Assembly: GCF_036365525.1 (NCBI RefSeq)
Contig: NW_027141174.1
Location: 7,440,001 to 7,504,000, forward strand
Reading direction: 5' to 3'
Source of the DNA: Heterodontus francisci
Lineage: Eukaryota
DNA length: 64,000 nt
The notes below the pieces were generated by a model. It did not search any database, was not told where the DNA came from, and saw only the letters and a list, made by a program, of their open reading frames with translations. A program made the translations under genes and the position numbers. Shown in pieces: positions 1 through 52,499 of the stretch; the first letter of the stretch is position 1, and every line of letters begins with the position of its first letter.

Positions 1-200
1 GGGGAATTGAAAAGCAAATAAGAGAAGCAAAGAAAGAGCATGAAAAGAGACTGGCAGCTGGCATAAAAGGGAATCCTAAAATCATATATTGGCATAGAAG
101 TAGTAAGAGGGTGCTATAAGTTTGAAAAGGGCCAATGAGGATGAAAAGTGAGATTTAGACCTGGTGGCAGGAGGTAAAGCTGAGGTATTAAATTAGTTAA
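1..200 (+). mobile_element. CR1 LINE ORF2 fragment
   Basis: Translates to IREAKKEHEKRLAAGIKGNPK, the same segment as IRRARRGHEKSLADRIKENPK in the CR1 at 40165-41328. Confidence 0.75.
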
Positions 201-202
201 GG

Positions 203-400
203 CAATATTCTACAGATGCTGGAAATCTGAAATAAAAACAAGAAATGCTGGGAATACTCAGCAGGTCTGGCAGCATCTGTGGAGACAGAAACAGAGTTAA
301 TGTTTCAGGTCAGTGACCCCCCATGAGAAATGCAGTTCCGATGAAGGGTCACTGATCTGAAACGTTAACTCTGTTTTTCTCTCCACAGATGCTGCCAGAC
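203..400. mobile_element. Non-autonomous Penelope-derived palindromic element (tail-to-tail 3' ends)
   Basis: Inverted arms 265-319 and 346-400 (~55 bp, few mismatches). The sequence matches the end of the Penelope element at 54781-54876. Confidence 0.75.
334..370 (+). ncRNA. Degenerate minimal type I hammerhead ribozyme motif (Penelope-type)
   Basis: AGTT-CCGATGA-A-GGGTC-ACT-GATCT-GAAA-C-GTT-AACT gives stem I AGTT/AACT, a 5-bp stem II and a palindromic ACGT stem III. The core CUGAUGA is mutated to CCGAUGA. Confidence 0.55.
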
Positions 401-404
401 GATA

Positions 405-2870
405 AGAATTCATTTAAGACCTCGCTCATTTCCCGTGGCTCCACACACAGATTACCACAATGATCCTTAAGGGGACCTACTCTCTCCCGAGCTCCCCTTT
501 TTACTCTTTACATACAGAGAGTCTTTTAGGATTCTCCTTTATCTTATACGCCAGGGAAATCTCATGGCCCCTTTCCACCCTCCTAACCTGAAACATGCCT
601 CCTCCTTTGTCCTGAGGAGACCTCAATATCCCTCGTGAACCAAGGTTCCCTAAACTTGCCAGCCTTGCTCTTCAATCTAACAGGAACATGCCGGCAATGG
701 ACACTTCCAATCTCACTTTTAAAAGCCTCCCACTTGCCAGACGTCCCTTTACCTGTAAACAGCCTCTCCGATTGAACTTTTGAGAGTTCCTGTCTGATGC
801 CATCGAAATTAGCCTTCTCCCAATTAAGGACTTCAACTTGAGGAGCAGTCCCATACTTTTCCATTCCTATCTTGAAGCTATTAGAGTTATGGTCAATGGT
901 CCCAAAGTGCTCCCGCACTGACACATCAACCACGTACCTAGCCTCATTTCCTAAGAGGAGGTCGAGCGCAGCACCTTCGCTAACAGGGACATCTACATAC
1001 TGCTTCAGAAAACTATCCTGGACATATAACAAATTCTTCCCCATCTGATCGCTTAGCACTAAGGCAGTTCCAGTCAATATTAGGGAAGAATACATCACCT
1101 ACTATTACAACCTTATAATTCCTCCACCTATCTGTGATTTACCAAAATATATGTTCCTCCAATTACCTCTGACTATTGGGGGGCCTATAGTATAATCCCA
1201 TCAAAGTGATCACCCCTTTCTTATTTCTAAGTTTACCCATATGACCTCACTGGAATTTCCCCCCAGGATATCCTCCCTAAGGACTGCCGTGTTGTCCTCC
1301 CTAATCCTCTCTTACCTTCACTTCTGTCACGCTGGAAGTATCGGTAACCTGAACATTGAGCTGCCGGTCCAGCCCATCCCTCAACCACGTTTCTGTAATA
1401 GCTATAATATCACAATCCCATGAACCAATCCATGCTCTGAGTTTATCTGCCTTACCTGTAAGGCTTCCTGCATTAAAGTTAATGCGGTTTAGCCTACCAG
1501 ACCTTACACGCTCCCTGTCCTGCCCTTGCCCGGCCTGCCTACTGGACTTGCTTGCTTTAACCTCTCCATTTGCCTCAACTATCTCATCGGGGAGACTACT
1601 ACTTTGGGTCCTGCAAGACTAGTTTAACCCCTCCCGAGTCGTATTAGCAAACCTCCACGCAAGGATATTGGTCCCCTTCCAGTTTAGATGCAACCCGTCC
1701 TTCTTGTGCAGGTTACCTCTGCGCCAGAAGAGATCCCAATTATCTAAGCAGCTGAAGCCCTCCCGCCTGCACCAGCTCTTCTGCCACTCATTCATTTGCC
1801 GTTTCCTCCTATTCCTACCTTCAATATCATGTGACACAGGGAGTAATCCTGAGATTACAACCCTGGAGGTCCTTTTTTTAACCTTCTGCATAACTCCCTA
1901 TATTCACTTTGCAGGACCACCTCTCTCTTCCTACTTATGTCGGTAGTACCAATATGAACCACGACCTCTGGCTGCTCACCCTGCCCTTTCAGAATATCCT
2001 GCAGACACTCAGTGTGACATTCTTGACCCTCGCACTAGAGAGGCAACATACCATCCTGAAGCCACGTTTGCGGCCACAGAAACGCCTATCTGCACCCGTT
2101 ACGATAGAAACCCCCATCACTATAGCTCTTTCACCCGATTACTGCCCTGCTGTGCAGCAGAGCCATTTTTGTTGGCGCAAACCTGGCTGTTGCTGCCGTC
2201 CCCTAGGAGGTCAACTCCCCCAGCAGTATCCAAAGCCGTATATCTGTTTGAGAGGAAGATGACCACAGGGGACTCCTGCACTACCTGCCTGCGCCTAATA
2301 CTCTGTCTGGTGGTCACCCTTTCCTTTTCTGCCTGTGCAGCCATGACCTGCAGTGTGACCGCCTCATAAAAGGGCTATCTCTGACGTCCTCAGAATCGCG
2401 CATGTTCTGCAGTGATCCCACCCGTAGCTCCAGCTCGGTAATGCGGGTAGTCAGTAGCTGCAGATGGATGCATTTCCTGCACATATGGTCGTCAGGGAGA
2501 CTGGAAGCGTCCCTGATTTCCCACATAGCACAAGAGGAGCAGATCACGGGGCTGAGCTCTCCTGCCATGGCTTACCCTCAGATTAATTAGTTGCTCCCTT
2601 CAATTAAAAAAAAAATATTAATTACACTTGGGGCCTTGTTCTACCCATTCCAATCTAAAGTCCTTAATAAGCTAGACTGAATTAAAATAATACACTTTAG
2701 TAGCACTCACCTTATCACCAGAGGCTTTCTTTCAAAAAAAATGCTTTCCCCTTTTTTAAAAGATATTTAAATATACTTACAGCTGTGACTCCACCCAACC
2801 GATTACCTCTCGGCTTTCCTATGACGTCAGTGTTTATTTTCTTCTTGTTTTTTCCAAAACTCCTGCACGC
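405..2870 (-). mobile_element. CR1 LINE, 5' part (ORF1 zinc finger/esterase plus endonuclease), decayed
   Basis: ORF1 start MAGELSPVICSSCAMWEIRD..CRKC at 2568; esterase VVISGLLPV..DGLHLN (1619-1891); APE end LDLLLGNE..EHFGTIDHNS (583-1098). Confidence 0.9.
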
Positions 2871-2879
2871 TCGGTTCCC

Positions 2880-3135
2880 TGTCAGATAGCCAATCAGTGG
2901 ACCCTCATCCCTCGATTTGCAGTGACTGTTGCTCCTCTTTATGAACTACCTAATGGTGATGCTGACCAGTTTTAACCTGGTTGGACTGAAGATAGCACAG
3001 AAGCAGTAATACAATTGAAGAAAGCTGTCACCCAGGCCACGTGTATTATCCCAACTAACCCTGAAAAGACGTTCTACATGGAGGTGGGGACACAGAGAAA
3101 AGCCTGGATGCTGGCTTATGTCGAGAAAACCAGGA
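2880..3135 (+). mobile_element. Fragment of LTR-element/retroviral RT thumb-connection region
   Basis: With one frameshift it reads IPRFAVTVAPLYEL..WTEDSTEAVIQLKKAVTQATCIIPTNPEKTFYMEV. Confidence 0.55.
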
Positions 3136-3140
3136 GAAAC

Positions 3141-3440
3141 TACCTGCAGACAGGATCAGAGGCTGGCGGACCTTGACGGAAGCTGATCCAGAGTGGGACT
3201 GTAAAAAGAGAGGCGGGACTGAAGGCTCTCAAATACCTGCAGACAGGAGCAGCAGCTGGCTGACCTAGGTGGAAGATGATCCGGAGAACGACCTGAAAAA
3301 GTGAGCATGGGGCTCAAGACCCTCAGTTACCTGGAGACAGGAGTGGCAGCAAGGGGACCTGGATGGAAGCTGATCCAGAGCGGGCCCTGAAATAGAGAGC
3401 GCGGTGCTCGAAGCCCTCAAATACCTGAAGCCAGGGCCGG
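3141..3440 (+). repeat. Degenerate ~94-bp tandem repeat (~3.2 units) upstream of a CR1 ORF1
   Basis: TACCTG(C/G/A)AG-type unit start recurs at 3141, 3234, 3328 and 3422; GGAAG(C/A)TGATCC is present in the three full units. Confidence 0.7.
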
Positions 3441-4540
3441 CGGCTGTTAGGCTCTCTCTAGCTCTCTCTGTGCTGGCATGCGTTGAAACTCGAAAGGCTA
3501 AAACAATACTTAAAGTGACACCAAGGGGAATCTGCAAGGTGTTTGGTTGGGTAAGAAACTGCTGCTCGTGTATTGAAATAGCTGAAACAAGTGGAAAGTG
3601 ATAAGGTGAGTCCTATTGAAGTGTTGCTTTTTATTTAGTGTAATTTCTGAAAGACTGAGATTGCAGTAGTTAGTGTTTGGAGTAGAAGCAGGCCCCCAGT
3701 GTAATTAGTATTTTTTAATGAAGGGAGTAACTATGTAATCTAAGGGTAAGTCATGGCAGGGGAGCTGGCACCGGAGATATGCTCCTCAGGTGCTATGAGG
3801 GAAATTAGGGACGCTTCCAGTGTCCCTGCCGACCAAGTGTGCAGGACGTGTATCCATCTGCAGCTGCAGGCTGCTCGTATTACGGAAATGGAGCTGCGGG
3901 TGGATTTACTGTGGAGGATCCGTGATGCTGCAGACGTCATGGATTGCACGATTAAAGAGGTGGTCACACCGCATGTAATGGCTGCACAGGCAGAAAAGAG
4001 ATGGGTGACCACCAGTCGGAGGAGTCGGCGCAAATCAGGTAATGCAGGAGTCCCTTGTGGCCATCCCCCTCTCAAACAGGTATACCACTTTGGATACTGT
4101 TGCGGGGAATGGCCTCCAAGGGGAAATCAGCAACAGCCAGGTTTGTGGCACCCACAGATGGCTCTGCTGCACAGCAGGGCAGTAAAAGAAGTGGAAGAGC
4201 TATAGTGAAACGGGATTCTATCTTAAGGGGTACAGATCAGCGCTACTGTGGCCGTAAAAGTGACTTCAGGATGGTACATTGCCTCCCTGGTTTTAGAGCC
4301 AAGGATGTCTCGCAGCGGCTGCAGGAAATTCCCGTTAAGGTGAAGGGTAGGCACAACAAGTCCAGATAAGCCTGGATGTCACGGGATATCGAGTATTGGA
4401 TCAGGGAAAAGGCGGCTTATGGCAGTTTCGGAGTGCTTAAAAGAGCAGAGGCACGAGAGGAGTATTGAAAGTGTAGTGGGGTACTTAAAAAAGTAATTTG
4501 GAGAGCGAAGAGGGGACATGAAAAGGCATTGGCGTGCACT

Positions 4541-4891
4541 ATTTATTTATTTTTTATATTTATAGATACAGCACTGAAACAGGCCCTTCGGCCCAACAAG
4601 TCTGTGCCAACCATTAACCACCCATTTCTACTAATCCTACACTAATCCCATATTCCTGCCACATCCCCACCTGTCCCTATATTCCACGACCAACTACCTA
4701 TACGAGGGGCAATTTATAATGGCCAAATTACCTATCAACCTGCACGTCTTTGGCTGTGGGAGGAAACCAGAGCATACGGCGAAAACCCACGCAGACACAG
4801 GGAGAACTTGCAAACTCCGCACAGGCAGTACCCAGAATTGAACCTGGAGCTGTGAGGCTGTGGTGCTAACCACTGCACCACTGTGCCGCCC
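4541..4891 (-). mobile_element. HE1/V-type tRNA-derived SINE, full length
   Basis: Minus strand begins GGGCGGCACAGTGGTGCAGTGGTTAGCAC (A box), then GGTTCAATTC (B box), V-domain GCGTGGGTTTTC..GGTTTCCTCCCAC, CR1-type tail GGGCCGAAGGGCCTGTTTC and (TAAA)n. Confidence 0.9.
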
Positions 4892-5423
4892 ACAAGGTAA
4901 AGGAAAATCCTAAGGCGTTTGAAAGTATATTAAGGGCAACCGGATAACCAGGGGCAGAATAAGGCCCATTATGGACCAAAGTGGCAATCTGTGTGTGGAG
5001 CCGGAGGACAAAAGTGAGGTTTTAAATGATTGATTTCCAACTGTGTTAACTATGGAGATGGCCGATGCACGTGTAGAGATCAGGGAGGGGGGTTGCAATA
5101 TACCTGAACATATTTGCATTAAAAGGGAGGAGGTATTAGCTGTTTTAGCGGGATAAAAGTGGATACATCCCCAGCCCCAGATGATATGTATCCCAGGCTG
5201 TTATGTCAGGCAGGAGAGGAGATAGCAGGGGCTCTGACACAAATTTCCATATCTTCTCTGGCCACGGGAGAGGTGCCGGAGGACTGGAGGAGAGCGGATG
5301 TGGGACCATTGTTCAAGAAGGACAGGCTAGACCAGGTAATTACAGGCCTGTGAGTCTACTATCAGTGCTTGGGAAACTATCAGCAAAAACATCTGAGTGA
5401 CAGGATTAATCTCCACTTGGAGA

Positions 5424-7385
5424 CAACAAAGAACTAAGAACAGCAAAGCACAGGAACAAGCCATTCGGCCCTCCAAGCCTGCGCCGATCTTGATGATTGC
5501 TTAAACTAACACCTTCAGCATTTCCGGGGCCCATATCCCTCTATTCCCATCCTATTCATATATTTCTCAAGATGTCTCTTAAACGTCGCTATCGTATCTG
5601 CTTCCACCACCTCCCCTGGCAGCAAGATCCAGGCACTCACCACCCTCTGTGTAAAAAACCTGCCTCGCACATCCCCTCTAAACTTTGCCCCTCGCACCTT
5701 AAACCTATGTCCCCTAGTAACTGACTCTTACACCCTGGGAAAAAGCTTCTGACTATCCACTCTGTCCATGCCGCTCATAACTTTGCAGACCTCTATCATG
5801 TCGCCCCTCCTCCTCCGTCATTCCAGTGAAAACAATCCGAGTTTATCCAACCTCTGCTCATAGCTAATGCCCTCCAGACCAGGCAACACCTTGGTAAACC
5901 TCCTCTGTACCCTCTCCAAAGCCTCCACGTTCTTCTGGTCGTGTGGTGACCAGAACTGCACGCAATATTCTAAGTGTGGCCGAACTAAGGTTCTGTACAG
6001 CTGAAACTTGCCATTTTTTATTTTCTATGCTGCAACCGATGAAGGCAAGCATGCTGTATGCCTTCTAGACTACCTTATCCACCTGCGTTGCCAGTTTCAG
6101 TGACCTGTGGACTAGTACGCCCAGATCTCTTTGCCTGTCAATACTCCTGAGGGTTCTGCCATTTACTGTATACCTCCCACGTGCATCAGACCTCCCAAAA
6201 TGCATTACCTCACATTTGTCCAGATTAAACTCCATCTGCCATTTCTCCGCCCAAGTCTCCAACAGATCTATATCCTGTTGTATCCTCTGACAATCCTCAT
6301 CATTATCCGCAACTCCACCAACCTTTGTGTCGTCCGCAAACTTACTCATCAGACCGGCTGCATTTTCCTCCAAATCATTTATATATACTGCAAACAGCAA
6401 AGGCCCCAGCACTGATCCCTGTGGAACACCACTAGTCACATCCCTCCATTCAGAACAACACCCATCCACTGATACCCTCTGTCTTCTATGACCGAGCCAG
6501 TTCTGTATCCCTCTTGCCAGCTCACCTCTGATCCCGTGTGACTTCACCTTTTGTACCAGTCTGCCATGCAGGACCTTGTCAAAGGCTTTACTAAAGTCCA
6601 TATAGATAACATCCACTGCCCTTCCTGCATCAATCATCTTCGTCACTTCCTCAAAAAACTCAATCAAGTTAGTAAGACACGACCTCCCCTTCACAAAGCC
6701 ATGCTGTCTCTCGCTAAGAACTTCGTTTGTTTCCAAATGGGAGTAAATCCTGTCCCGAAGAATCCTCTCTAATAGTTTCCCTACCACTGACGTAAGGCTC
6801 ACCGGCCTATATTTTCCTGGATTATCCTTACCACCCTTTTTAAACAAAGGCACAGCATTGGCTATTCTCCAGTCCTCTGGGACCTCACCTGTAGCCAATG
6901 AGGATGCAAAGATTTCTTTCAAGGCCCCAGCAATTTCTTCCCCTGCCTCCCTCAGTATTCTGGGATATATCCCATCAGGCCCTGGGGACGTATCTACCTT
7001 AATGCTTTGCAAGGCACCCAACATCTCCTCCTTTTTGATAATGGGATGCCTGAGACTATCTGCACTCCCTTCCCGAGGCTCATCATCCACCAAATCCTTC
7101 TCTTTGGTGAATACTGATGCAAAGTACACATTTTGCAGCTCGCCCATTTCCTCTGGTTCCACAAATAGATTCTCATCTCTGTCATTGAGTGGGCCAACCC
7201 TTTCCCTGGTTACCCTCTTGCTCTTTATATGTGTATAAAAAGCCTTGGGATTTTCCTTAATCCTATTTGCCAATGACTTTTCATGACCCCTTTTAGCCCT
7301 CCTAACTCCTTGCTAAAGTTCCTACCTACTGTCTTTATATTCCTCAAGTGCTTCATCTGTTCCTAGCCTTCCAGCCCTTACAAAT
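5424..7385 (-). mobile_element. 5'-truncated CR1 LINE (402-aa RT ORF 6065-7273)
   Basis: YMDFSKAFDKV, GVPQGSVLGPLLF and KFADDTK motifs; (TTCTTTG)-type tail at ~5424-5440. Same young subfamily as 21700-24171. Confidence 0.95.
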
Positions 7386-8702
7386 GCAGGGATTAATCAG
7401 GGATAGTCATCACTGCTTTGCCAGGGGGAGATCATGTTTAACTAACTTGATTGATTTTTGGAGGCAGTGATTAGATGTGTAGATGAGGGTAAAGCAGTTT
7501 GTGTGGTATTAATGGACTTCAGTAAGGTTTTTGATAAGGTCCCGCATGGGGCCTCCTAAGAATGTAAGAGCCCATGGGATCCAGGGCAATTTGGCAAATT
7601 GGATTCAAAATTAGCTTCGTGGCAGGAGATAGAGGTTAATGGTCGAGGGTTGTTTTTGCGAGTGGAAGCCTGTAACCAATGATGGACCACAGGCATCAGT
7701 ACTGGGACACTTGCTGTTTGTAGTGTACATTAATCATTTCGATGTGAAGATAGGAGGTATGTTAAGTAAGCATGCGGATGACATGAAAATTGATGGTGGT
7801 GTAAATGCTGAAGAGGAACGCCTTAGATTATAGGACGATATAGATGGGCTGTTAAGATGGGCAGAGCAGTGTCAAATAAAATTTAATCCTGACAAATGTG
7901 AGGTGGTGCATTCTACGAGAAAGGACAAGGCATAGAAATATACCATAGGTGGTAGGACCATAGGAAATACAGAAGGTCAGAGCAACTTTGGTGTACTTGT
8001 CCATAAATCACTGAAGGCAGCAGCACAGGTAGATCAGGTGCTTCAGAAGGCATGTGGGATACTTGCCTTTATTAGCCGAGGCATAGAATATAACAGCAGG
8101 GAGGTTATGATGGAGCTGTATAAAACGCTAGTTAGGCCAAAACTGGAGTACTGTGTCAGTTCTGGGTACCACACTATTGGAAGGAAATGATTGCACTGGA
8201 GAGGATGCAGAGGAGATTCACCAGAATGTTGTCAGGGCTGGAGCATTCAGCTATGAAGAGAGACTGAAAAAGCAAGGGTTGTTTTGCTTCGAGCAGAGAA
8301 GGCTGAGGTGGAACACGATTGAGGTATACAAAATTATGAGGGGCATTGATAGGTTAGATGGGAATATCCTTTTTTTCCCCTTATTGGAGGGATCAGTAAC
8401 CAGGAGACATTGATTTTAGGTAAGGGGCAGGAGGTTTAGAGGGGATTTGATGAAAAACTCTTCACCCAGTGGGTGGTTGGAATCTGGAACGCACTGCCTT
8501 AAGAGGTGGTAGAGGCAGGAATCTTCACATCATTTAAGAGGTATTTGGATGAGCACTTGAAACGTCATAGCATTTAAGGCTACGGGCCATGTGCTGGAAA
8601 ATGGGATTAGAATAGTTAGGTGCTTGATGGCCGGCACAGGCACGAGGGGCCGAAGGGTCTGTTTCTGTGCTGTATATCTCTATGACTCTGTGACTCTATG
8701 AC

Positions 8703-8985
8703 CTTATCAAATGCATGCTGGAACTCTAAGTACAGTATCTCCACCGATTCCACTCTATCCACAACACATGTTACTTCTTGAAAGGCCTCCAATAAATTGT
8801 TAAGCATTATTTACCTTTCATACAACCATGTTGACTCTGCCTGATTATCTTGAATTTTTCTAAGTGCTTGCTATAACGTCTTTAATAATACTTCTGACAT
8901 TTTCCTCAAGACAAATATGAAGTTAACTGGCCTGTAGTTTCCTGCTTTCTGTCCCTCTCCCTTTTTGAGTAAATGAATTGCATCG
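8703..8985 (-). mobile_element. CR1 RT fragment
   Basis: NNLLEAFQEVT..LYLEFQHAFDKV. Confidence 0.8.
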
Positions 8986-9720
8986 GCAATAAAGGAGTTA
9001 CCTATAGAGTGATGTCACTTCTGACTGGTTAAAAGCCCGATCTGTTGAAAAGTTGTGTAATGTAGCTGGACAGTTAGGCATTACTCTCCATGTAAACATT
9101 AGGAAACTCGAAATCCTAAGACTTGCGGCCAGCCATTTTTCACTTGAAGCTGAAGACCCAAACAGGGAAACAGATAGAGTAATGTTAGATAAGGTAAACT
9201 AGAACAGAAGAGAGCAGAATTAGAATTCCAGAGGGGTCGAGAAAGGGCAGAGTGAGTGTCAAGAAAGGGAAAAAGAAAGGGTGTTCCGGAAGGAGAAGCA
9301 GGAAAGGGAGTGAAGGTAGCTCAAACAACTAGAGGAAAACCCAATACATCCAGTAAAGGCGCAGCTAGTGAGTCAGTTACTCCTAGCTCAGGATCGTGTG
9401 CTGAGATGTTAAAGTTCTCCCAGTTCATTCCAAAGCTCACTGAGGAGGATGTGGCAGAATTTTATGTCACTTTTGAAAAGCTTGCAATGTAGCTGAAATA
9501 GCTGGCAGAGAGCTGGATTCTGTTTTGGCAAAGCAAAGTAACAGGGAAAGCCCATAAGATTTATTCACTGTTTCCAAATGAAAGTTCATCAGATTATGAG
9601 ATGACTTAAAATTCTATTCTGGGCCCATATGAGATCGTACTGGAGGCATATTGCCAAAATTTCCGAACCCTCCGAAAGCGGCCTGGCCAAACGTACCTTG
9701 AATTTGAAAGAGTTAAGCAG

Positions 9721-12261
9721 GTTAGGAACATCAGAGGAGGATCAGGCCATTCAGCCCATCGAACCTGCTCCACCATTCAATATTATCATGGCTGATCATC
9801 CACTTCAATGCTTTTTTTGCCCACATTATCCCCATCTCCCTTTATGTCACTGGTATTTAGAAATATGGCAACCAATGCTACAAACATTCTCAATGGCCGA
9901 GCTTCCACAGCCCTGTGGGATAGACAGTTTCAAAAGATTTACAACCCTCTGAGTAAAGAAATTTCTCTTCATCTCTTTCCTAAATGTCTTCTCTCTTATT
10001 TTGAAAACGTGTCTCCTCTTTCCATACTCCCCAATGTGGAAAAAATATGAACAGCTTACTTGCATCTACCCTGTCTATCCCTTTAAGTATTGCGTAGGTT
10101 TCCAATGAGAGCACCTCTGATTCTTCGAAACTCTCGAGAATACAGGCCCAGTTTACCAAATCTCTCTTCACAGGACTGTTCTCTTATCCTGGGTACAAGT
10201 GAACTTTCTTCACAGTCCCTCAATGGCAATGATATCCTTCTTAAGATAAGAGGACCAAATCTGCACATAACATTGCAGGAGTGGTCTAACCATTTTTCTA
10301 TATAATTAACGCAGTACTTGGCTACTCCTGTACTCAAATCCTCTGTGGCGAATGCCAACATACCATTCGCCTTCCTAAATGCTTGCTGCACCTGCATGTT
10401 CGCTTTTAGCGACTTATTGAGGAGGACACCCAGGTGCCTTTGTACATCTACACTTTCTAATCTCTCACAATTTAAGAAATGCTCTGCACACCTAGCAAAG
10501 TGGATAACCACATATTTTTCCGGACTATATTCCATCTGTCATGTTCTTGCTCACTCATTGGGCTATAATTTAGAGTCGGCGGACGGGAATTCGCCACCAA
10601 CATAAAGATCGGTGGCGAACCCACTTCTACCTAACCCAGGGATGCGTCCTGTATTTTACGGCTCCTCTGTCTTTAAGTGTCCCGAAGCAGGACTTCCAGC
10701 TGCTTGAGCGAGGAACTCACGCCTCATTGAGCTGCCAGTCGATCAGCAGGCGTGGTGGCCACTGCTGAGACTGCAGTCAGCCGACCATATGGAGCCATGC
10801 ATCAAAATAAATTGGACTTGACTCACCAGGGAGATCGGTCCTTCCCTAGTGAGGCTGGAGTTGTCGTTCGGGGCCGCCTTGGGTCCCGGGATGGGTTGGG
10901 AGTCGGGGGCGGCCCTTAATCGGGAACCTTGTGCCTGACTTCCGTGGCTACCCCCGCCCCATCTACACTGCGGCTCGCGGAAAAGCCGGCTATCGCCGCT
11001 TGCCAGGGGTTAAATACCCAACTATGCGGGTGAGAGCTCTTAAAAGGCCTTTAAGTGGCCACTTAACGGCCTTCATTGGTCTCGGGCGGTTGAGACGTTT
11101 CTCACCCCCCCCACACCCCCAACCGCCCGACCGCCGTAAAGTTGACCGGAGGCGAGAGCAGGGCAGTTAGGCCTCCTGGACGCTCCCGCTCAATTTTATG
11201 CCACATCCATTTCACCATGCGACTTGCTGGGACAGCATAAAATTCAGCCCATTATGTCCGTCTAACTCCCCTTGAAGCCACTTTGCATTTTCCTCACAGC
11301 ACAGATTCCTACCTAGTTTTGAGTTATCCGCGAACTTGGAAATATTACATTGGTGCCCACATTCAAATCATTGATATATATTGTGAACAGCTGATGCCCA
11401 AGCACTGATCCCTGCGGTACCTCACTCGTCTCAGCCTGCCAATGGGAATGACACGTTTATTCCTACTCTCTGCTTTCTGCCCGTTAATCAATGCTTAATA
11501 CATGTCAGGATATTACATCCAATCCCATGTGCTTTAGTTTTGCTAACGAAGTTACTGTGAGGGACTTTATCAAAAGTCTTCTGAAAACCCAAGTATAGTG
11601 CATCCACCAACTCCCCTTTATCAATTATGTTAGAGACATCTTCAAAAAACTCCAACAGATTTGTCAAACATGATTTCCCATTCATAAATCCATGTTGACT
11701 ATACCCAATTGGGTCATTATTATCAACTTGCCTGTTTATCACATCCTTCAGAAATTATTCTATCAATTTCACTACTACTAGTGCAATTCCACCAGGGCTT
11801 TAGGTCTCGCTTTTCTCCCCCCCTCCATTCATAAAGAGTGGGGTGATATTTGCGACATTCCAATCTGCAGGAACCCCTGAAGAGTCTGTAGACTTTTGGA
11901 AGATGATCACCAATGCTTCTACTATCTCCATAACTACCTCTTTAAACATTCTGAGATATAGAATATCACCTCCTGGGGACCTATCAACCTTTAACCCCAT
12001 TAATGTCTCCAATACAACATTCTACCAATACTAAAATCCTTAATTTCTTCATTCTCCCTAGCCCCTTTGATCTCTAATTCTTGGAGATTTTTTGTTTCTT
12101 CCTGTGAGAAGACAGACATAAAATAAACATTTAGCTTCTCTGTCATTGCTCTATTCCCCATTATAAATTCTCCTGACTCTGCCTGTAATGGACCCACATT
12201 TGCCTTAGCCAAATGTTTCCTGTTTACATACCGATAGAAGCTTTTACAGTCCATTTCTATG
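9721..12261 (-). mobile_element. 5'-truncated CR1 LINE inserted in gypsy gag
   Basis: SQHGFMNGKSCLTNLLEFFE and RNFFTQRVV motifs. The gag frame is continuous when this block is removed. Confidence 0.85.
10560..11250. mobile_element. GC-rich MITE, probably PIF/Harbinger-group
   Basis: Imperfect TIRs GGGCTATAATTTA...TAAAATTCAGCCC; 3-bp TSD ATT at 10557-59 and 11251-53. It interrupts a CR1. Confidence 0.7.
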
Positions 12262-15200
12262 CTTGCTTTTGACCAGTGGATACGGACACTGAAGATACAG
12301 CCCACATATGCAAACCTCAAAGAGTTGATCCTTCTCGCGGAGTTCAAAAACATCCTCCCCCTCCCACTAAAACCCACATAAAGGAACAAAAGTTTCAAAG
12401 AGCCAGGCTGGTTATAATTCTGGCTGATGAATTTTCCCTTGTGCACAAGGCCTTAACCCCAAAGGGGAAACCTTCCCTGATGACCCCCAAACACCCAAGC
12501 ATAGAAGGTGGGAATGTGATAGGAGCATGAACAGACATGGGCAAGAAGGAAAATCGAGACACAGAAGGGCCCATCATCAGGGTAAATAGGACGGTACTGA
12601 GAGCAGGAGTAGTGGCCAAAGACCTGTGTGCTTCCACTTTAAAAAGGCAGATCACTGTCGAGCTGACTGCTGGAATTTACAGGGAATAATCAAGGTCCAC
12701 CAGACCAGTTCTGGATAATAGGCCCTGATGGAAAGCACCACAGATCAGGCTGTGGCTTTAACTGCGGCAGTCAGGCACAGTAAGCCTGATGAGCATACGG
12801 GAAATCTTAACAAAATCCTTGAGAGTTACCAGGACTTTGTATCCCTAATAAATGTGACGCCATACCCCTCGACTGAGGCTAGCAAGCCCATAGCCATAGT
12901 TAAGGATACAGGGGTCACCCAATCTCTTCTGCTGGAAAAAGGCACGACCTTTCTCCCAGGGAGTTCAATGAATGCTAGAGTTTTAGTGAATAGTATTGGA
13001 AGATGATGCATTCCCACACCTTTATATCAGGTGTATGAGTGCGACCTATTTTCAGGACTGGTAACCATGGGGATTGTCCCTAGCTTACAAGTGGATGGGT
13101 CGACCTGCTCCTGGGTAATATTCTTGTCGGAGAAAAGATGTCAGCTTCCCCAGTAGTTCTATAGAATCCAAAAGAGGTCAGGGAGACAATGCAGTGACTG
13201 GAGAAGTTCCCTGGCATTCTCTCTGATTGTATGGTGACTCGGACCATGACCAAACAATCCCCTGAACTGATATTGCAGATGGATGACCCTACTGTCTCGC
13301 TGTCTGAAACCTTCTTTGGGAAGGTCGATTATCCAAAGGATGGCTTAAAAAGATCTTCCTTAGCTGATGCACAAAAAGACGACCCAGTGTTAAAAGAAAA
13401 TATCACAGACCATCCAAACCAAAACTGAAGCAGAAGGAGTTCCAGAGTGTTAGTATTTAAAAAATGAGGTGCTGATGAGGAAGTGGTAACCTTTTCACAG
13501 ACCTGCGGATGAAGAGTGGACAGTGGTTCGCCAGATAGTGGTGGTGTTGAGCTACCGTAAAGAAATATTAGGAATGGCCCATAAACTTCTAATGGCTGTA
13601 CATGTCAGTGTACGAAAAACCCAAGCCCACATAAGACAGCATTTTGACTGGCCAAAACTCCAGAAAGATGTGTTGGAGTTCTGTAAAACAGGTCACATGT
13701 GTCTGGTTGTGGGGAAGCCCCAACCTGCAATAAAACCTGCACCCAATATTCCCGTATAAGCTTTTGGGGAACCCTTCAGCAGAGAGCTGGTGGATTGTGT
13801 GGGACCCCTGGCACAAGCAAAAGGGGACGAGCAGTATCTTCTCACCATTATGGATGTCGTGACCTGATTCCCACAGGCAATTTCCCCAAAGGACTATGTC
13901 TGCCAAGGTAGCGGTGGAGGGCCTAAGCCAATTCATTACCCGATATGGGCTGCCTGCCGAGATTCAGATGAATCAGGGCACACATTTTATGCCCAGTACT
14001 TATCAAAGGTTCATGGATATTCTGGGCAAAACCCAGCTGAAGTCCTCAGCCACCCATACAGCGTCACATGGGACTATGTGATGAGTAACCCCATGACGGG
14101 GACAAAGGGCTGGAATTTCTCCTGCTGACTACCAGGGACTTATCCAATGAATACACTGGCTTTAGTCCCGTTGAATTAGTTTACGAACACGAGGTGAAAG
14201 GTCCTCTTAAACTAATAAAGGATAAGTTTTTTTGGGGGGACACAGCGATGAGTGTTCCATGTTAGACTACATTTCCATACTCAGGGAGCGGCTCACGAGA
14301 GCCTGTGCAATGGCTCAGAAACACCTGAAGACCTCCCAGGCAGCTATGAAAAGGTAAGCACAGAAAAATGCCAAAGCCAGAACATTTCAGCCCAGAGACC
14401 ATGTATTGTTACAAGTCGCAATGCATGGTGAACTCCTGAAAGCCCGATTCAGTGGTCCATATTGAGTGGCAAAATAAACAGCCAGGTCAATTATTTAATT
14501 GATATCCCAGACCAAAGGAAATAAGTGAAGGCAGTGGAGGGGATATGCAAACACAGGTCTGACAGACAGTCAGGAGGGAAGGATTGAAAAGGACAGTGAG
14601 GACAGGTTAGAGGAGGGCGAGGAGGTTTCTCAACTGCAGCCCCATCTTCTCCGCTTATCCAACCCTAAAATGTTAGAAACATTAGACGCCACCCTCTCCG
14701 TCTTAAATGCAGGCCAAAGAGGCACCCTACAAAGGCTGCTCGCAGCCTTGACAGAAAGCTGCAAGGACAAGGACATTTCCCAAAAAGGCAATCCATGGTG
14801 AGGGAGATGCCTCCCATAGTCGAAGTGTCACAGGGGATTGCAGTGACACATGGACAGACAGTTGCACACACTAATGACCCATAGGGCACAGAAAAGATTA
14901 GAAACAAATATCCTGCCTACAGTAAAGGGAAACGTGAAGGGAAAATGCCCTTAGGTCGACAGCACTTCTGTACCTCAGCAGAAAGCTAAAAGTAAGGTCA
15001 GTGTGGATGTGCCCACTGAAGAACGCAATGATCAGTTCCCAAAGCTCATCAAACCCAGCAATTTCAAAGCAGAACTCAGCAAGAACAAATGCCCAGAGGA
15101 AATCTCAGACACCTCACAAGGGCTAAATTTATACAAGGAACAGGAACCTAGTTAAAGTAGCATTGCAGAACAGAAAAAAAAATAAAACAATTTAATTGCT

Positions 15201-15429
15201 GATGCATTGTCCAGGGTCATACCCGAAACATACCCATCCCAGACAAAACTCCAAAAAAATTAACACAATTGTTACAGACAATGCCAGCTTAATTAAACTT
15301 AATTCTAAGTTTAATGTGTGAATTTGAGAAGGGATTATTGAGAATGAATGTGTGTTTCCTTCTATTTCTTTCCACAATACTGCAATAAATTGTTCTTCTT
15401 AACACATTTATTTCCATGTGCTGCGACGG

Positions 15430-16501
15430 TGTCAAGATAACACGATGTGCCAAATGAAGAACTTAAATTAGTCAATTGGAAACTTACAGTAAACTTTTGA
15501 TGGAAAAAAATCCCACAGTTAACCTTGAAAAATTCGCAGCCAAGATGGCCACCGCAATTGGCATTTGAAAAACCTTTTCACGTTCCAAGGCCTCCAACAG
15601 GAGACACATGTTTGATGATCCTGGACACAAATCATTGACTTGCTCAAGTAGCTGAATTACCTAAAATTAGATTTATTGACACGGCATAAAAGACCATCCT
15701 GGCACATGATTTTGAAAGAGCAAACTCCTACAACTGTAAATACTGGTATCCTGAGGCCTGGGGAGACAAAAGTTTCTGACATTGAATCTCACTATAAGGG
15801 ACCACTGAGGCAATCATGAAACCTTCTCTCCATCTCTGTGAAAGCTGGGAGTTTCCCTGGACAACGACAGGCAAGCCACTGACTCAAACTGTGCAGAAGT
15901 AGAAGGGTTCCCCTTCACCCTGCCTCTCTCTCTCTCCAGATAATATCACAAGTTTGAAAACCACTTGCGACTGTGGGCCCTCCAAGAATACAGATTGCTC
16001 CAGACAGAGACCCTAGGGGAACAACATCACCGACAAGTCTTCCTCCAAGAAAACCCTGAGCGGGCCAGGCACAAGGGGCACTTCGAACAACCAAAGACTT
16101 CAAGCATTCAACTTCAGCTGGGAGACCTCACAGCATCCAACCTCACCGAATGAGTATTTTTTCTTATTTATTCTGGACTCCAATCCAAACACACATTAAC
16201 TTCTCACTCTATAATCTATTTTTGTGTGATTCTCGTGTGAGTGTGTGTGTAAATGCGCGGTGTATTTTTTCTATTATTTTATTTAGATCGGGTTTAGATT
16301 GTTACGTGCAATAAACACACATCTTTCGTGTTTAAACTCAAGAGAACCTGTCCGATTAGTTCCTTCACCATCACACAAAAGGTAAAATACTCAATGTGTC
16401 GGTAAGCACATCCACTCTTTAAAAAGGAAAAACACTGTTGCAGTCAAACAACAGGAAGGAGAAGAAGAACGGCTGTGACTCCTCCTCACCTGGCCATAAC
16501 A
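15430..16501 (+). mobile_element. 3' LTR of gypsy element 1
   Basis: TGTCAAG...CATAACA termini; AATAAA near 16310. The end CCTCCTCACCTGGCCATAACA parallels the LTR ending at 44849. Confidence 0.7.
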
Positions 16502-16752
16502 ATAGGCATGGTTGGGATGGAGATACTATGGGAATGAACTTAGCTCAGCATTGCATTGATACCAGAGGTTGTAAATTTCCTGTTTCAGCCTCAGTCAATG
16601 CCCAGTGAGGGGGATGCAGATCGTGGAAATAGAATAGAGTTTGTGCAGGAAACGGAAGACAATGGCTTCAGTCATCTCATGATTTAATTAACAAGAACAA
16701 AAAATCAGTGAAATATGGCTTATGAATCTAATAGTTGGATACCGAGACTTAC

Positions 16753-17041
16753 CAGGAACACCACTGATAGCAAGGATGGGACAGTAAATAAATTGAGTCA
16801 TTCTCAGAGCATAATAGATCCGCCGCTCTAATGTTATCCAAAAATAATCTGCCGTAATCAGGCCAAACAAAGTGGAGAAACCCCTGCTGTCCATTGTTGT
16901 GACATTCCAATCTATTGTTCTCAGATTCTGACCCATTGGTGTAACATTCCAATCTATTGTTCTCAGATTCTGACCCATTGGTGTAACATTCCAATCTATT
17001 GTTCTCAGATTCTGACCCATTGGTGTAACATTCCAATCCAT
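16753..17041 (-). CDS. Exon 1 of a second GPR139-like orphan GPCR (96 codons + 1 nt); exon 2 not in window
   Basis: MDWNVTP(MGQNLRTIDWNVTP)n..MDSRG..RMTQFIYCPILAISGVP ends at a phase-1 donor CCTG|GTAAGT. This parallels LYYLILAGIGVP-G|GTAAGA at 52211. The start ATG is inferred. Confidence 0.8.
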
Positions 17042-17057
17042 TGTTCTCCGATTCTGA
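16891..17057 (-). repeat. 42-bp coding tandem repeat x4 (dimer of a 21-bp subunit)
   Basis: Units start at 16891, 16933, 16975 and 17017 and are nearly identical; they encode MGQNLRTIDWNVTP. Confidence 0.95.
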
Positions 17058-17150
17058 TCTTTGCTCTCCCTCTCTCTGGAGCCGCTGATCCCTGTTAGTT
17101 CCGGAGGTGATGCTCCCGTTGATACCATGGAATAGCACATCGAAAGGAGA

Positions 17151-17163
17151 CCCTTATAAATAA
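17151..17163 (-). promoter_or_regulatory. Candidate TATA box for the second GPCR gene
   Basis: TATTTATAAGGG on the minus strand, ~115 bp upstream of the proposed ATG at 17041. Confidence 0.4.
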
Positions 17164-17414
17164 AAGATGAAAACCCTCCAGTGACACAATTAGGGTCCAT
17201 GGAGACTGACATTCAGTACAGTCACTGTCCAAACAGGTTCAGTTAACATCTTTCAAACTAAAACTTCTGCACTGCCACAAAGTTGAACATTTACCTGGTC
17301 TGGATGGAATGGATGAGGGCGGTTGAGGGATAGTATAGTAGAAATAGCAGAATCTTTCAGTCATCCTTGGATATGAGAGTGACAGAAGATGGAAACCCTG
17401 AAGTGACACAAAAT

Positions 17415-35127: not shown

Positions 35128-35278
35128 NNNNNNNNNNNNNNNNNNNNNNNNNNNNNNNNNNNNNNNNNNNNNNNNNNNNNNNNNNNNNNNNNNNNNNNNN
35201 NNNNNNNNNNNNNNNNNNNNNNNNNNNNNNNNNNNNNNNNNNNNNNNNNNNNNNNNNNNNNNNNNNNNNNNNNNNNNN
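35128..35278. other. Assembly gap (151 N)
   Basis: Run of n. Confidence 1.
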
Positions 35279-37763: not shown

Positions 37764-38187
37764 TCGTTGTGCAGCTTTTCCAGGAGCACAGGCATTGCGA
37801 GCGAGAAGTGAACAGCTGGGAAGTCAATTTCATCGGGAGTTTCGGTGGAGCAGGGACTGCTGGGTAAGTAGAAACCTATATATTTGGGCTGTGTAAATTC
37901 TCTTACCTTTTCGTTGTGCAGATTTTCCAGGGGCACAGGCATTGCGAGCGAGGAGTGTACAGCTGGGAAGTCAATTTCATCGGGAGTTTCGGTGGAGCAG
38001 GGACTGCTGGGTAAGTAGAAACCTATATATTTGGGCTGTGTAAATTCTCTTACCTTTTCGTTGTGCAGCTTTTCCAGGAGCACAGGCATTGCAAGCCAGG
38101 AGTGAACAGCTGGGAAGTCAATTTCATCGGGAGTTTCGGTGGAGCAGGGACTGCTGGGTAATTAGAAACCTATATATTTGGGCTGTT
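37764..38187 (+). repeat. 147-bp tandem monomers (x2.9) forming the CR1 5' UTR
   Basis: Units start TCGTTGTGCAG at 37764, 37911 and 38058 and are near-identical. Confidence 0.95.
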
Positions 38188-41100
38188 TCTGAACCCGAGG
38201 CACTACTCTTGCAGTGTCTCCCACCCGCCCTCCTCCTCTTACCAAAAGAAAGGACTCAGTTGTGTGTAGGTAAGGTAAGACTTTTTCTATTTCTCTTCTT
38301 GTTTTATCGTGTGATTGGTTAAAAACTTGGGAATTTAGAATAGTGGGAATGGAGGTTAAGGCAGTTGAATGTTCCTCCTGCAGAATGTGGGAGGTAAGGG
38401 TCGCCAAGGGTGTCCCTGCTGACTGCATCTGCGGGAAGTGCACCCAGCTCCAGCTCCTCGAGGACCGCGTTAGGGAACTGGAGCTGGAGCTGGAGGAACT
38501 TCGGCTCATTCGGGAGGCGGAGGGGATTATTGAGAGGAGTTATCGGGAGGCAGTCACACCTCAGGTAAAAGAAGAAGGTAGGTGGGTTACCGTCAGGGGA
38601 AGGAGAGGGAACCAGCAGGCAGTGCAGGGATCCCCTGTGGCCGTTTCCCTCCACAACAGGTATACCGTTTTGGATTCTGTTGGGGGAGACGACTTACCAG
38701 GGGTAGGCAATGGGATACAGGTCTCTGGCACAGAGTCTGTCCTTGTTGCTCTGAAGGGAAGGGGTAAGAGGAGCAGAGCATTAGTCATTGGGGACTCCAT
38801 AGTTAGGGGAACAGATAGGAGGTTTTGTGGGAACGAGAGAGACTCACGGTTGGTGTGTTGCCTCCCTGGTGCCAGGGTACGTGATGTCTCGGATCGTGTT
38901 TTTGGGAACCTCAAGGCGGAGGGTGAGCAGCCCCAAGTCGTGGTACACATAGGCACCAACGACATAGGTAGGAAGAGAGATGTTGATTTAAGGCAGAAAT
39001 TCAGGGAGCTAGGGTGGAAGCTCAGAGCGAGAACAAACAGAGTTGTTATCTCTGGGTTGTTGCCCGTGCCACATGCCAGCGAAGCCAGGAATCGGGAGAG
39101 AGAGGAGTTGAACACGTGGCTGCAGGGAGTGTGTAGGAGGGAGGATTTCGGTTTCCTGGATAATTGGGGCTCTTTCTGTGGTAGTTGGACCTCTACAAAC
39201 AGGATGGTCTTCACCTGAACCAGAGGGGTACCAATATCCTGGGGAGGAGATTTTCTAGTGCTCTTCGGGGGGGTTTAAACTAATTCAGCAGGGGGATGGG
39301 AACCTAAATTGTCGTTCCAGTGTGCAGGATGTTGAGAGTAGTGAGGTCAGGGATAAGGTTATAAGGACACAAGAGGGCACTTGCAAGCAAGAGCTTGGTT
39401 TAAAATGTGTCTACTTCAACGCCAGGAGCATCCGGAATAAGGTGGGTGAGCTTGCAGCATGGGTTGGTACCTGGGGTCTCGATGTTGTGGCCATTTCAGA
39501 GACATGGATAGAGCAGGGACAGGAATGGATGTTCCGGGTTCCGGGATTTAGATGTTTCACTAAGAACAGAGAAGATGGTAAAAGTGGGGGTGTGTGGGGT
39601 GTGGCATTGTTAATCAAGGAAAGTATTACAGCTGCAGAAAGGACGTTTGAGGACTCGTCTACTGAGGTAGTCTGGGCCGAGGTTAGAAACAGGACAGGAG
39701 AGGTCACCCTGTTGGGAGTTTTCTCTCGACCTCCAAATAGTTCCAGAGATGTAGAGGAAAGGATAGCAAAGATGATTCTTGACAGGAGCGAGAGTAACAG
39801 GGTAGTGGTTATGGGGGACTTTAACTTTCCAAATATTGACTGGAAATACTATAGTTCGAGTACTTTAGATGGGTCTGTTTTTGTCCAGTGTGTGCAGGAG
39901 GGTTTTCTGACACAGTATGTAGACAGGCCAACCAGGGGTGATGCCACATTGGATTTGGTACTGGGTAATGAACCCGGCCAGGTGTTAGATTTAGAAGTTG
40001 GTGAGCACTTTGGTGATAGTGATCACAATTCGGTTAGGTTTACCTTAGCGATGGGCAGGGACAGGCATATACAGCAGGGCAAGAATTAAAGCTGGGGGAA
40101 AGGAAATTATGATGCGATTAGGCAAGATTTAGGATGCGTAGGATGGGGAAGGAAACTGCAGGGGATGGGCACAATCGAAATGTGGAGCTTATTCAAGGAG
40201 CAGCTACTGCGTGTCCTTGATAAGTATGTACCTGTCAGGCAGGGAGGAAGTTGTCGAGCGAGGGATCCGTGGTTTACTAAAGAAGTTGAAGAGCTTGTCA
40301 AGAGGAAGAAGAAGGCTTATGTTAGGATGAGACGTGAAGGCTCAGTTAGGGCGCTTGAGAGTTACAAGCTAGCCAGGAAGGATCTAAAGGGAGAGATAAG
40401 AAGAGCAAGGAGAGGACATGAGAAGTCATTGGCGGATAGGATCAAAGAAAACCCTAAGGCTTTCTATAGGTATATCAGGAATAAAAGAATGACTACAGAT
40501 CGGTTAGGGCCAATCAAGGATAGTAGTGGGAAGTTGTGTGTGGAATCGGAGGAGATAGGGGAAGTGTTAAATGAATATTTTTCGTCAGTATTTACAGTGG
40601 AGAAAGAAAATGTTGTCGAGGAGAATACTGAGATTCAGGTTACTAGGCTAGATGGGATTGAGGTTCACAAGGAGGAGGTGTTAGCAATTTTGGAAAGTGT
40701 GAAAATAGATAAGTCCCCTGGGCCAGATGGGATTTATCCTAGGATTCTCTGGGAAGCCAGGGAGGAGATTGCAGAGCCTTTGTCCTTGATTTTTATGTCG
40801 TCATTGTCGACAGGAATAGTGCCGGAAGACTGGAGGATAGTAAATGTTGTCCCCTTGTTCAAGAAGGGGAGTAGAGACAGCCCTGGTAATTATAGACCTG
40901 TGAGCCTTACTTCGGTTGTGGGTAAAATGTTGGAAAAGGTTATAAGAGATAGGATTTATAATCATCTTGAAAAGAATAAGTTCATTAGAGATAGTCAGCA
41001 CGGTTTTGTGAAGGGTAGGTCGTGCCTCACAAACCTTATTGAGTTTTTTGAGAAGGTGACCAAACAGGTGGATGAGGGTAAAGCCGTGGATGTGGTCTAT

Positions 41101-41506
41101 ATGGATTTCAGTAAGGCGTTTGATAAAGTTCCCCACGGCAGGCTATTGCAGAAAATACAGAAGTATGGGATTGAAGGTGAATTAGTGCTTTGGATCAGAA
41201 ATTGGCAAGCTGAAAGAAGACAGAGGGTGGTGGTTGATGGTAAATGTTCATCCTGGAGTATAGTTCCTGGTGGTGTACCGCAAGGATCTGTTTTGGGGCC
41301 ACTGCTGTTTGTCATTTTTTATAAATGACCTGGATGAGGGTGTAGAAGGGTGGGTTAGTAAATTTGCGGATGACACGAAGGTCGGTGGAGTTGTGGATAG
41401 TGCCGAACGATGTTGTCGGTTACAGAGGGACATAGATAGGCTGCAGAGCTGGGCTGAGAGATGGCAAATGGAGTTTAATGCGGAAAAGTGTGAGGTGATT
41501 CACTTT

Positions 41507-47051: not shown

Positions 47052-47962
47052 TCAGTTGTTTTGCTTGTTCATTAATTGAATAATTGATGCAACTGGATAT
47101 TTCATTGCATTTTTGACCTGCTCTCTGAATTTCGACTGAATCGCCAAATAAATAAACGTGTTTATGCAGCAACTTAAAGTCCGCAACATAAACCCAAATT
47201 CTCCAAATATGTATTCAGAATCGGTGTAATCGCTATGATCTGTTCCTGTAATGTTATAATATAAGAAATCCATAACATACACCAACCACAGAAGTATGAA
47301 GCTGCCAGATATGCTGAAGAGTAAAATCATAGATTTCCTTCTGCTCTCCATCTCTGGATCAGTGTGATTTTCTACCCTGCTCTGACACTTCAGTCCCTTC
47401 CGGACTCGACTGGCCACTAAAACGTGTCTGATTGTCAGAGCGTTGAGCAACAAAACTAAAGTGAATGGGAGCAATGGAGTTAAAACCACAGCAAACCAGT
47501 CAAATCCCACCCATCCGGGTGCAGTATAATAGCTTGGATTTCGATAACAGTCCCATGGCACGTTGTCAATTATCTCTCTCGGTTCAAATATAAAGTAGAA
47601 GGGAACGTTTTTTAAACAGAGAACAATGCAGCTTGTTGCGAGAACCACAGCTGCAGTTGTCTTGGTGCAATATTTTGTTTTTAGCTTCTGGCAACAAATA
47701 GCCACAAATCGATCAAAGGAGAAAGTGACAGTGAACCAGACAGAGCAGTCTGTGCATGCACGACTTAGGACAGCAATAACACTACACACAGGCGTGATGT
47801 CCAGGAAAGATCCCGGGAAATAATAATAACTGATCCGCCACAGGATGACTTCAGAGATAATGACCAGCAGATCCGCCATTGCCATGGCCACCAGGTAGCG
47901 AGTGGTGCAGGTGGAGAGTCCGCACTTTCCCCGGGACAGCAAGCCAATCGCCAGTAAATTAA
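47052..47962 (-). CDS. Exon 2 of an intact GPR139/GPR142-like class A orphan GPCR (325 aa total)
   Basis: Pyrimidine tract plus TCATATAG|TTAATTTACTG acceptor. (V)NLLAIGLLSRGKCGLS; TM2 LVAMAMADLL; TM3 SVWFTVTFSFDRFVAIC; TM5 PLLPFTLVLLLNALTI; TM6 ILLFSISGSFILLW; TM7 SCCINTFIY; helix 8 SKFREQV. Open to the TGA. Confidence 0.93.
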
Positions 47963-48059
47963 CTATATGAAGGAGAAGAAAAAAGAAAAAAACGGTAAAG
48001 TAACTGGTAAAACATTCCCTGTGTCTGATCCAGACAGTAAGGTCTGGATTTTAGCACCA

Positions 48060-52210: not shown

Positions 52211-52277
52211 CTGGAACACCAATGCCAGCAAGGATCAGGTAATATAATTTCCTGATACTGTAAACTGTTTCTCTCAT
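52211..52277 (-). CDS. Exon 1 of the intact GPR139-like GPCR
   Basis: AAAATG-initiated MRETVYSIRKLYYLILAGIGVP plus G|GTAAGA phase-1 donor. G+TT gives Val in frame with exon 2 (67+911=978 nt). Confidence 0.9.
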
Positions 52278-52499
52278 TTTCTGTGTGAAATGTTGTGTCC
52301 CTTTATGCTGCAGGAAACCGCTCTGTCTTAAACTCTTAGTCTAAACATTTCCAGAGCCAACAATTTATACCCTGTGGGATCTCCTTGGGGAAATTGAAGT
52401 TGCAACATCGTTCAAATTGTTTTTCTTTCTTTTTTAATCGAACTAACAGATTACAAAATCGAGTAAAGTCTCTGTTGTGATAGAATATAAATATGAAGA

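Follow-up and report, generated by a model that had tools for sequence, protein, structure and literature searches.

The window, that is, the whole 64,000-nucleotide stretch of Heterodontus francisci DNA analysed here, carries on its minus strand a repeat-bearing exon of one receptor gene and, upstream of it on that strand, both exons of a neighbouring receptor gene, with an assembly gap of 151 N (35128-35278) between the two genes. The features are listed below in window coordinates; a slash in a donor motif marks the splice point.

16747..16753, minus: phase-1 splice donor G/GTAAGT, at which paralog contigs of guessed RNA status end or join (16753).
16754..16894, minus: 47 aa of unique sequence covering the juxtamembrane segment and TM1's first half, 45/47 identical to P0350.
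16895..17062, minus: four 42-bp units, in which 21-bp heptad halves of two kinds (MGQNLRT / IDWNVTP or T) alternate, eight in all.
17039..17041, minus: likely start codon, with A at -3 and G at +4, 96 codons before the donor.
17063..17124, minus: conserved leader, judged from relatives' sequence to be likely 5' UTR despite its open frame.
17124..17126, minus: position of the paralogs' splice acceptor (AG at 17126-17125, exon start at 17124), taken from paralog contigs.
17129..17135, minus: initiator-like motif with its A at 17133, a candidate transcription start by consensus match alone.
17155..17162, minus: putative TATA-like box TATTTATA, which departs from TATAWAWR at one position and precedes the repeat array by 100 nt.
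47052..47963, minus: neighbour's exon 2, 7tm_1 (Pfam 7tm_1 E 8.6e-22).
52211..52277, minus: neighbour's exon 1, without repeats, N-terminus as in P0314.

The rest of the window holds a LINE-type element (37764-41328) with a GDSL/esterase ORF at 38274-39218 and a 147-bp tandem repeat upstream, and a LINE-type RT ORF at 6065-7312. ORF fragments at 58687-60504 on the minus strand resemble endogenous retrovirus env/pol by eye, and none of three ORFs there gave a Pfam match at E<=0.05; a Pfam DUF58 match (E 0.057, below the cut-off) was discarded as noise. The neighbour's intron contains, just before exon 2, an 84-bp minisatellite (48096-49073, 11.7 copies, 65% matches), and similar-looking sequence was seen by eye near 51500-51900.

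The first-pass annotation had read the repetitive ORF at 16688-17212 as an exon in disguise, and this reading is borne out both by the closest relative and by a joined paralog contig of guessed RNA status described below. The ORF lies on the minus strand, which the first-pass annotation had left unsaid; its homologous part ends in IYCPILAISGVP-G/GTAAGT, and the window sequence confirms the proposed phase-1 donor with 16753 as the last exon base; the unspliced exon ORFs of relatives continue GVP-GKS past the donor position. The reading frame is open from 17212 through this donor, which is canonical. When the 96-aa peptide starting at 17041 was compared with 2,095 candidate proteins, 63 matched at E<=0.01, nearly all of them shark proteins that carry the label 'probable G-protein coupled receptor 139' or one like it, and in most of them the segment continues into VNLL..., the start of exon 2. 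A family profile matched the exon at E 3e-23, and the likeness to the receptor family is not due to chance. The closest protein, P0350 (XP_067883923.1, Heterodontus francisci), is identical at 45 of the 47 residues that follow the last Met, and its sequence goes on through an intact exon 2 (7tm_1 60.3 bits, curated cut-off 30.5); its annotated form is without any repeat. The window exon itself encodes just half of TM1, and this segment (16754..16894) was modelled as a helix with a pLDDT of 77-84. Judged by sequence comparison, this is a real, coding-type exon of a shark GPR139-like orphan class A receptor, and it can safely be called a first coding exon.

Exon 2 was not found in positions 1-16752 of the window by profile and tblastn searches, so that the intron would exceed 16.7 kb. 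A plus-strand match at 43386-43508, with E 0.01 by tblastn and E 0.08 by profile, was not accepted as exon 2, and splicing of 16753 to the neighbour's exon at 47963 is impossible, since that exon lies upstream on the minus strand. Annotation often misses this first coding exon: among the eight proteins of the P0350 cluster, one is annotated with it, six with a LINE-like first piece, and one is partial. In all eight, exon 2 translates to its full length (0-11 differences in 296 aa). The window likewise lacks the LINE-like piece that annotation places immediately ahead of exon 2 in siblings, as would fit a long intron that extends past the window edge. On this view splicing would span more than 16.7 kb and reach a P0253/P0350-type exon 2 to the left of the window. 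Seven of the nine accessions in the P0350 (P0253) cluster are consecutive with accessions in the P0314 (P0064) cluster, the latter being that of the neighbour, which suggests a two-gene block in several copies; it is accession numbering, not DNA, that suggests at least seven duplications of this two-receptor block in H. francisci.

The neighbouring gene encodes a protein identical to P0314 of H. francisci at 302 of 302 residues. Its exon 1 reads MRETVYSIRKLYYLILAGIGVP and ends at a phase-1 donor, CCAG/GTAAGA, with 52211 as the last exon base, and an intron of 4,247 bp leads to exon 2. The exon at 16753 had been said to share its TM1 half, intron phase and position with that at 52211; the phase-1 donor is indeed shared, and the likeness of the TM1 half holds loosely (a DNA match of 30 bp at 87%). 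The neighbour is a distant paralog of the repeat-bearing receptors, ~51% identical in the 7TM region, and the repeat unit was found in none of its 120 best matches, 22 of which have an annotated TM1 exon. In a tree of 345 of the 357 proteins, sampled as two clades from ~2,400-2,500 matches that include other GPCRs, all 126 unit-bearing proteins belong to a single 220-leaf clade (support 0.877), from which the 117 neighbour-clade proteins are absent, and identity between the groups averages 53%; further unit-bearing clades may exist among the remaining matches. The idea that the neighbouring receptors differ by a modular ectodomain is not supported: the neighbour comes from another clade, and what separates the two genes goes far beyond one module.

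The repeat itself is as regular as had been described. Tandem Repeats Finder placed it at 16891-17057 with a score of 306 (period 42, 4.0 copies, 96% matches) and gave a second, weaker period of 21. Units 2 and 3 have the same sequence; compared with them, unit 4 has 2 base differences and unit 1 has 5, and the array opens with a half-unit that is missing its ATG. The four sequons reported earlier, three of them followed by Pro, were found as NVTP three times and NVTT once, and the in-frame Mets noted every 7-14 residues map to 17041, 17020, 16978, 16936 and 16894 (spacing 7, 14, 14 and 14 residues). That Pro after a sequon disfavours glycosylation has published support: Pro at +3 is described as depleted in human glycosites and as reducing efficiency in the accessible part of bioRxiv 10.64898/2026.09.03.749169. 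Three of the four sugar-attachment motifs in this copy are therefore likely to be weakened. NVTP occurs in none of the 357 proteins, Pro follows the sequon in none of the 200 sequon-bearing units, and the exact N-terminus of the window exon has no match among these proteins. Because the Pro is private to this copy and common to three units, which also have in common a silent base linked to the CCA codon, the array appears to have been expanded or homogenised after the Pro change. The change from ACA to CCA would have arisen in one unit and then been copied into three, a recent event by this inferred order.

The claim of a recent expansion thus stands for the array of this copy and falls for the unit, which is old and clade-wide in sharks. 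We found it in Heterodontus, Heptranchias, Pristiophorus, Stegostoma, Rhincodon, Cetorhinus, Mustelus and Scyliorhinus torazame, and S. canicula carries a 13-aa variant; these sharks belong to both major lineages, Galeomorphii and Squalomorphii. The comparison of exon-1 repeat counts proposed at the outset gave 0-9 copies, with unit-bearing paralogs in at least eight genera, and the unit accordingly reads as an old clade-wide shark feature, not as a recent invention. The hallmark of the clade, M(G/D)(Q/R)NLRTIDWNVTT before a ~47-aa segment with YYP..G.P and a phase-1 donor, is present in the window exon with three deviations: Thr to Pro, Tyr to Cys and Ile to Ser. Among the 86 proteins with an annotated TM1 exon within the best 120 of 2,539 matches, ranked by 7TM similarity alone, DWNVTT-type halves number 0 in 26, 1 in 32, 2 in 17, 3 in 6 and 4 in 5, counts that are lower bounds, as the counter was strict and annotations begin at the first Met. 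The four units of the window lie near the high end; P0001 has nine. P0256, the one ray protein among those compared, lies outside the clade and is without the unit, which says nothing on absence in rays. A metagenome scan for the repeat unit gave 0 matches.

That the ectodomain varies in length among paralogs, as first suggested, was seen most directly in pairs with at least 97% core identity: the N-terminal length differs in 12 of 20 pairs, in 8 of them by multiples of 14, the pairs not being independent of one another. Copy-number turnover among close paralogs is thus fast by sequence comparison, and an in-frame unit that varies between homologous loci, the mark of a coding VNTR, is found here between paralogs and between species. 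As a separate observation, P0026 and P0311 have identical 7TM cores and clearly different juxtamembrane exon-1 sequences, and the pairs P0021/P0313 and P0034/P0300, each within its own 90% cluster, likewise differ in the exon-1 juxtamembrane part; exon-1 swapping between paralogs or annotation mis-joins could account for this.

The 5' side of the exon gives two different pictures. A distance of 29 nt separates the TATA-like box from the initiator-like motif downstream, and a TATA-like box is also present in the neighbour, TATAAATT at 52369, 92 nt before its ATG. Relatives' proteins read S/T/H-I-N-K/E at the position of the box, and their DNA would fit TATAAATA there. A leader-like stretch is found in P0050, P0275, P0013, P0044, P0255 and P0368, and in another frame in P0259. 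The window has GG at 17126-17125, where paralogs carry the acceptor AG, and this creates a weak ATG at 17128. Splicing could be followed in contigs from four runs of one sample, matched at 80% likeness, of which three runs are RNA by guess; every junction seen belongs to paralogs with ~80-86% likeness, not to this copy, and the contigs matched to the region break inside the repeat and none spans the stretch. In one X6 contig (record 19), 16753 is joined head-to-tail to 17122 with two letters between, which places the exon start at 17124; the depth of this contig, 14.2, is not a copy-number or expression figure. The joint is absent from the DNA run. An X7 contig ends exactly at 16753, and the loose-end consensus of the X1 DNA run at 17099 (6 contigs, agreement 0.67) has AG right before 17124 in paralogs. 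The joint and the ends indicate that some paralog uses both the donor and the acceptor, giving a 372-nt exon of phase 1-1, and a head-to-tail joint of such a symmetric exon fits circular RNA or tandem exon copies. The search for junction reads from the 16753 donor was thus answered in part, by a joint in a paralog contig of guessed RNA status and by none from this copy. For the question whether the exon is 5'-terminal, the TATA/initiator-like pair upstream stands against the acceptor used by paralogs at the 17124 position. An upstream exon read from contig tails stopping at 17115-17116 was set aside as weak: DNA contigs also diverge near 17099, and other guessed-RNA contigs run unspliced to ~17255.

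Start-codon choice is judged here by the scanning model. Translation would start at 17041, the ATG with the strongest context, and the CCA Pro codon gives the three following Mets a C at position -3. A strong first ATG followed by weakened ones argues against start-site choice by the repeat Mets, which had been offered as one use of the array and is unlikely. Translation may instead begin at one of the ATGs between 17212 and 17128 and give a long N-terminus, as the frame of P0255, P0365 and P0368 is open in that stretch, but the candidate transcription start is downstream of these ATGs or at most 5 nt away from them.

Several peculiarities of this copy raise the question whether it is still a working gene. 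Both differences of the 47-aa segment from P0350 are rare TM1 changes at conserved positions: Cys replaces the conserved Tyr of YYP, which is Tyr in 124 of the 125 unit-bearing relatives, and a Ser occupies a hydrophobic TM1 position at which none of the 125 has Ser. These changes suggest that this copy may be decaying. It could then be an exon in decay, or orphaned, within a block that was duplicated recently; relaxed selection would have allowed the expansion and the prolines, while the repeat stays functional in other paralogs. The absence of NVTP from all 357 proteins, the lost acceptor AG, the degenerate TATA box, and the lack of an exon 2 within 16.7 kb against the 4.2 kb intron of the neighbour all speak for it. 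However, the frame is open and the donor intact as described above, YCP also occurs in the full-length P0214, the exon 2 translations of all eight proteins in the sibling cluster are full length, and the siblings' LINE-like piece is likewise outside the window, fitting a long intron. We regard such decay as unlikely, though a real possibility.

The reading that we prefer, with a probability of roughly 0.55, is that the locus is a TM1-bearing first coding exon whose 42-bp repeat changes copy number by slippage and encodes a flexible, N-glycosylated tail of loosely constrained length. The unit would consist of two diverged 21-bp halves, usually with ACA in front and with ATG or ATA as the first codon, a construction by which any gain or loss of a repeat stays in frame. 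The sequon is present in 200 of 264 units (35 of 299 terminal-type units were dropped), and at least one non-Pro sequon occurs in 93 of 102 natural N-termini; in this copy the membrane-proximal NVTT would be left as the main efficient glycosylation site. AlphaFold gave a pLDDT below 50 for the repeat both in P0002, from an 84-sequence alignment, and in the window peptide, whereas the rest of the P0002 model is a normal 7TM body of seven helices; the low pLDDT would fit a flexible tail and does not prove disorder. The +2 residue of the sequon is Thr in 69% and Ser in 10% (79%), less conserved than the non-sequon Asn (92%), and Pro occurs within units in 26 of 127 proteins (34 of 264 units). The lower conservation at +2, the Pro within units, the 13-aa unit of S. 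canicula and a sister clade without the tail together favour a flexible tail of drifting length. Against this preferred reading, the heptad order (a=M/I, d=N, e=L/V), kept across sharks, exceeds what a neutral spacer needs, and the two rare TM1 substitutions and the missing paralog-type acceptor AG count against it in this particular copy. The failure to find an exon 2 in positions 1-16752, the single sibling protein annotated with this exon, the P0350 annotation without a repeat and junctions that stem from paralogs weigh against it as well.

The heptad order can also be taken as an Asn-at-d coiled-coil stalk that joins receptors or projects the N-terminus, with the unit number setting its length and the prolines breaking it. 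The positions are strongly biased (a=M/I at 84%/73%, d=N at 92%/89%, e=L/V), the same search also retrieves repeat proteins with Asn heptads that are unrelated, a YadA-like adhesin among them, the accessible text of PMC13580157 describes trimeric stalks with N at d, and AlphaFold drew a helix over residues 26-59 of P0002, though with a pLDDT below 50. Every second d-Asn, however, is a glycosylation sequon. An Asn cannot be both buried and glycosylated. The 34 units with Pro and the 13-residue unit of P0359, repeated about seven times, which breaks the heptad phase, also oppose a coiled coil, the model of the window peptide shows no helix in the repeat, and the E-values are inflated by repeat-to-repeat matches. 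The unbroken, Pro-free heptad phase that marks N-at-d coiled coils is not seen in this copy, where Pro recurs every second heptad. A trimer prediction for residues 1-72 of P0002, run without an alignment, scored 0.01 and counts neither for nor against. The bacterial and other repeat matches were set aside as compositional, not homologous. A coiled-coil stalk is therefore improbable in our estimate.

Another view, close to the one proposed in the first-pass annotation, makes the unit number a selected, possibly polymorphic module that tunes glycosylation, ligand access or start-site choice. It would gain from the fast turnover among close paralogs, from the retention of the unit in both shark lineages, and from the precedent of the coding VNTR in GPIb-alpha (accessible part of PMC6322330). 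On the other hand, a 42-bp unit is automatically in frame, so that its variation needs no selection, the sequon is no more conserved than the neighbouring residues, and the strong first ATG with weakened contexts after it opposes start-site choice. We hold a tuning module to be very unlikely; most likely, the variation in length is near-neutral turnover of a tolerant spacer.

On the preferred reading, a flexible glycosylated tail of drifting length, the repeat is apparently an undescribed feature of an already annotated shark receptor clade, not a one-off invention, and the window locus is one copy among many that may itself be decaying. The modular N-terminus, with 0-9 units, offers a natural series for testing how N-terminal length or glycan number acts on a class A receptor. 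At E<=0.001, 2,356 and 2,539 protein clusters match the two receptors, and in either set the top 120 come from sharks or rays without exception. Catshark has 5-8 receptors in each of the OR, ORA and TAAR families, according to the accessible part of PMC6368271, and given these few receptors the family may bear on shark chemosensation. A wider proposal, that a large undescribed shark GPR139-like family is an amino-acid or peptide chemosensory repertoire, with one clade whose variable heptad ectodomain (a glycan stalk or an Asn-core coiled coil) tunes trafficking or ligand access by its length and glycosylation, we consider doubtful.

Among known systems, the RefSeq shark proteins named 'probable G-protein coupled receptor 139' (P0350, P0021, P0214 and P0002) are the closest, as they share the exon end, the TM1 half and the repeat unit; none of them has NVTP or the exact N-terminus of the window, and the name is an automatic label. 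No paper describing this shark family or its repeat was found in a search whose scope was literature outside most subscription journals. Human GPR139 (PDB 7VUG, 9M42) is the best solved-structure match of the paralog P0021 (E 3e-11, the next at 6e-6), with a similar TM1 motif YY..L...G.P.N. It is a distant match, however, at 46 bits, and in sharks the receptors form a large, expanded family, not a single gene; with this best PDB match of just 46 bits and many shark paralogs, one-to-one orthology with GPR139 does not follow. To our knowledge, human GPR139 is without such a repeat. GPR139 is described as Gq-coupled and activated by L-Trp and L-Phe in the accessible text of PMC5863515, bony fish have extra GPR139/142 subtypes in that of PMC6504862, which never mentions sharks, and GPR139 is not mentioned in the accessible part of PMC11979771. 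After sharks, the nearest ESM Atlas clusters are invertebrate receptors of the FMRFamide/MIP type and Srw-like receptors, FMRFamide-receptor-like with PF10324 Srw on 16-74% of members; this likeness is at the level of features, without an alignment or a tree, and no repeat tail is reported in that group. GPIb-alpha likewise has an in-frame extracellular tandem unit of variable number, 13 aa in 1-4 copies (accessible part of PMC6322330), but that protein crosses the membrane once, has a mucin-like stalk and varies between alleles, whereas the shark exon forms the N-terminus of a 7TM receptor, carries N-sequons and varies between paralogs. The stalks of trimeric autotransporters show the same periodicity of hydrophobic a and Asn d as the shark repeat, a likeness of pattern and not of homology, and unlike these N-at-d stalks the shark repeat contains prolines, sequons and 13-aa units.
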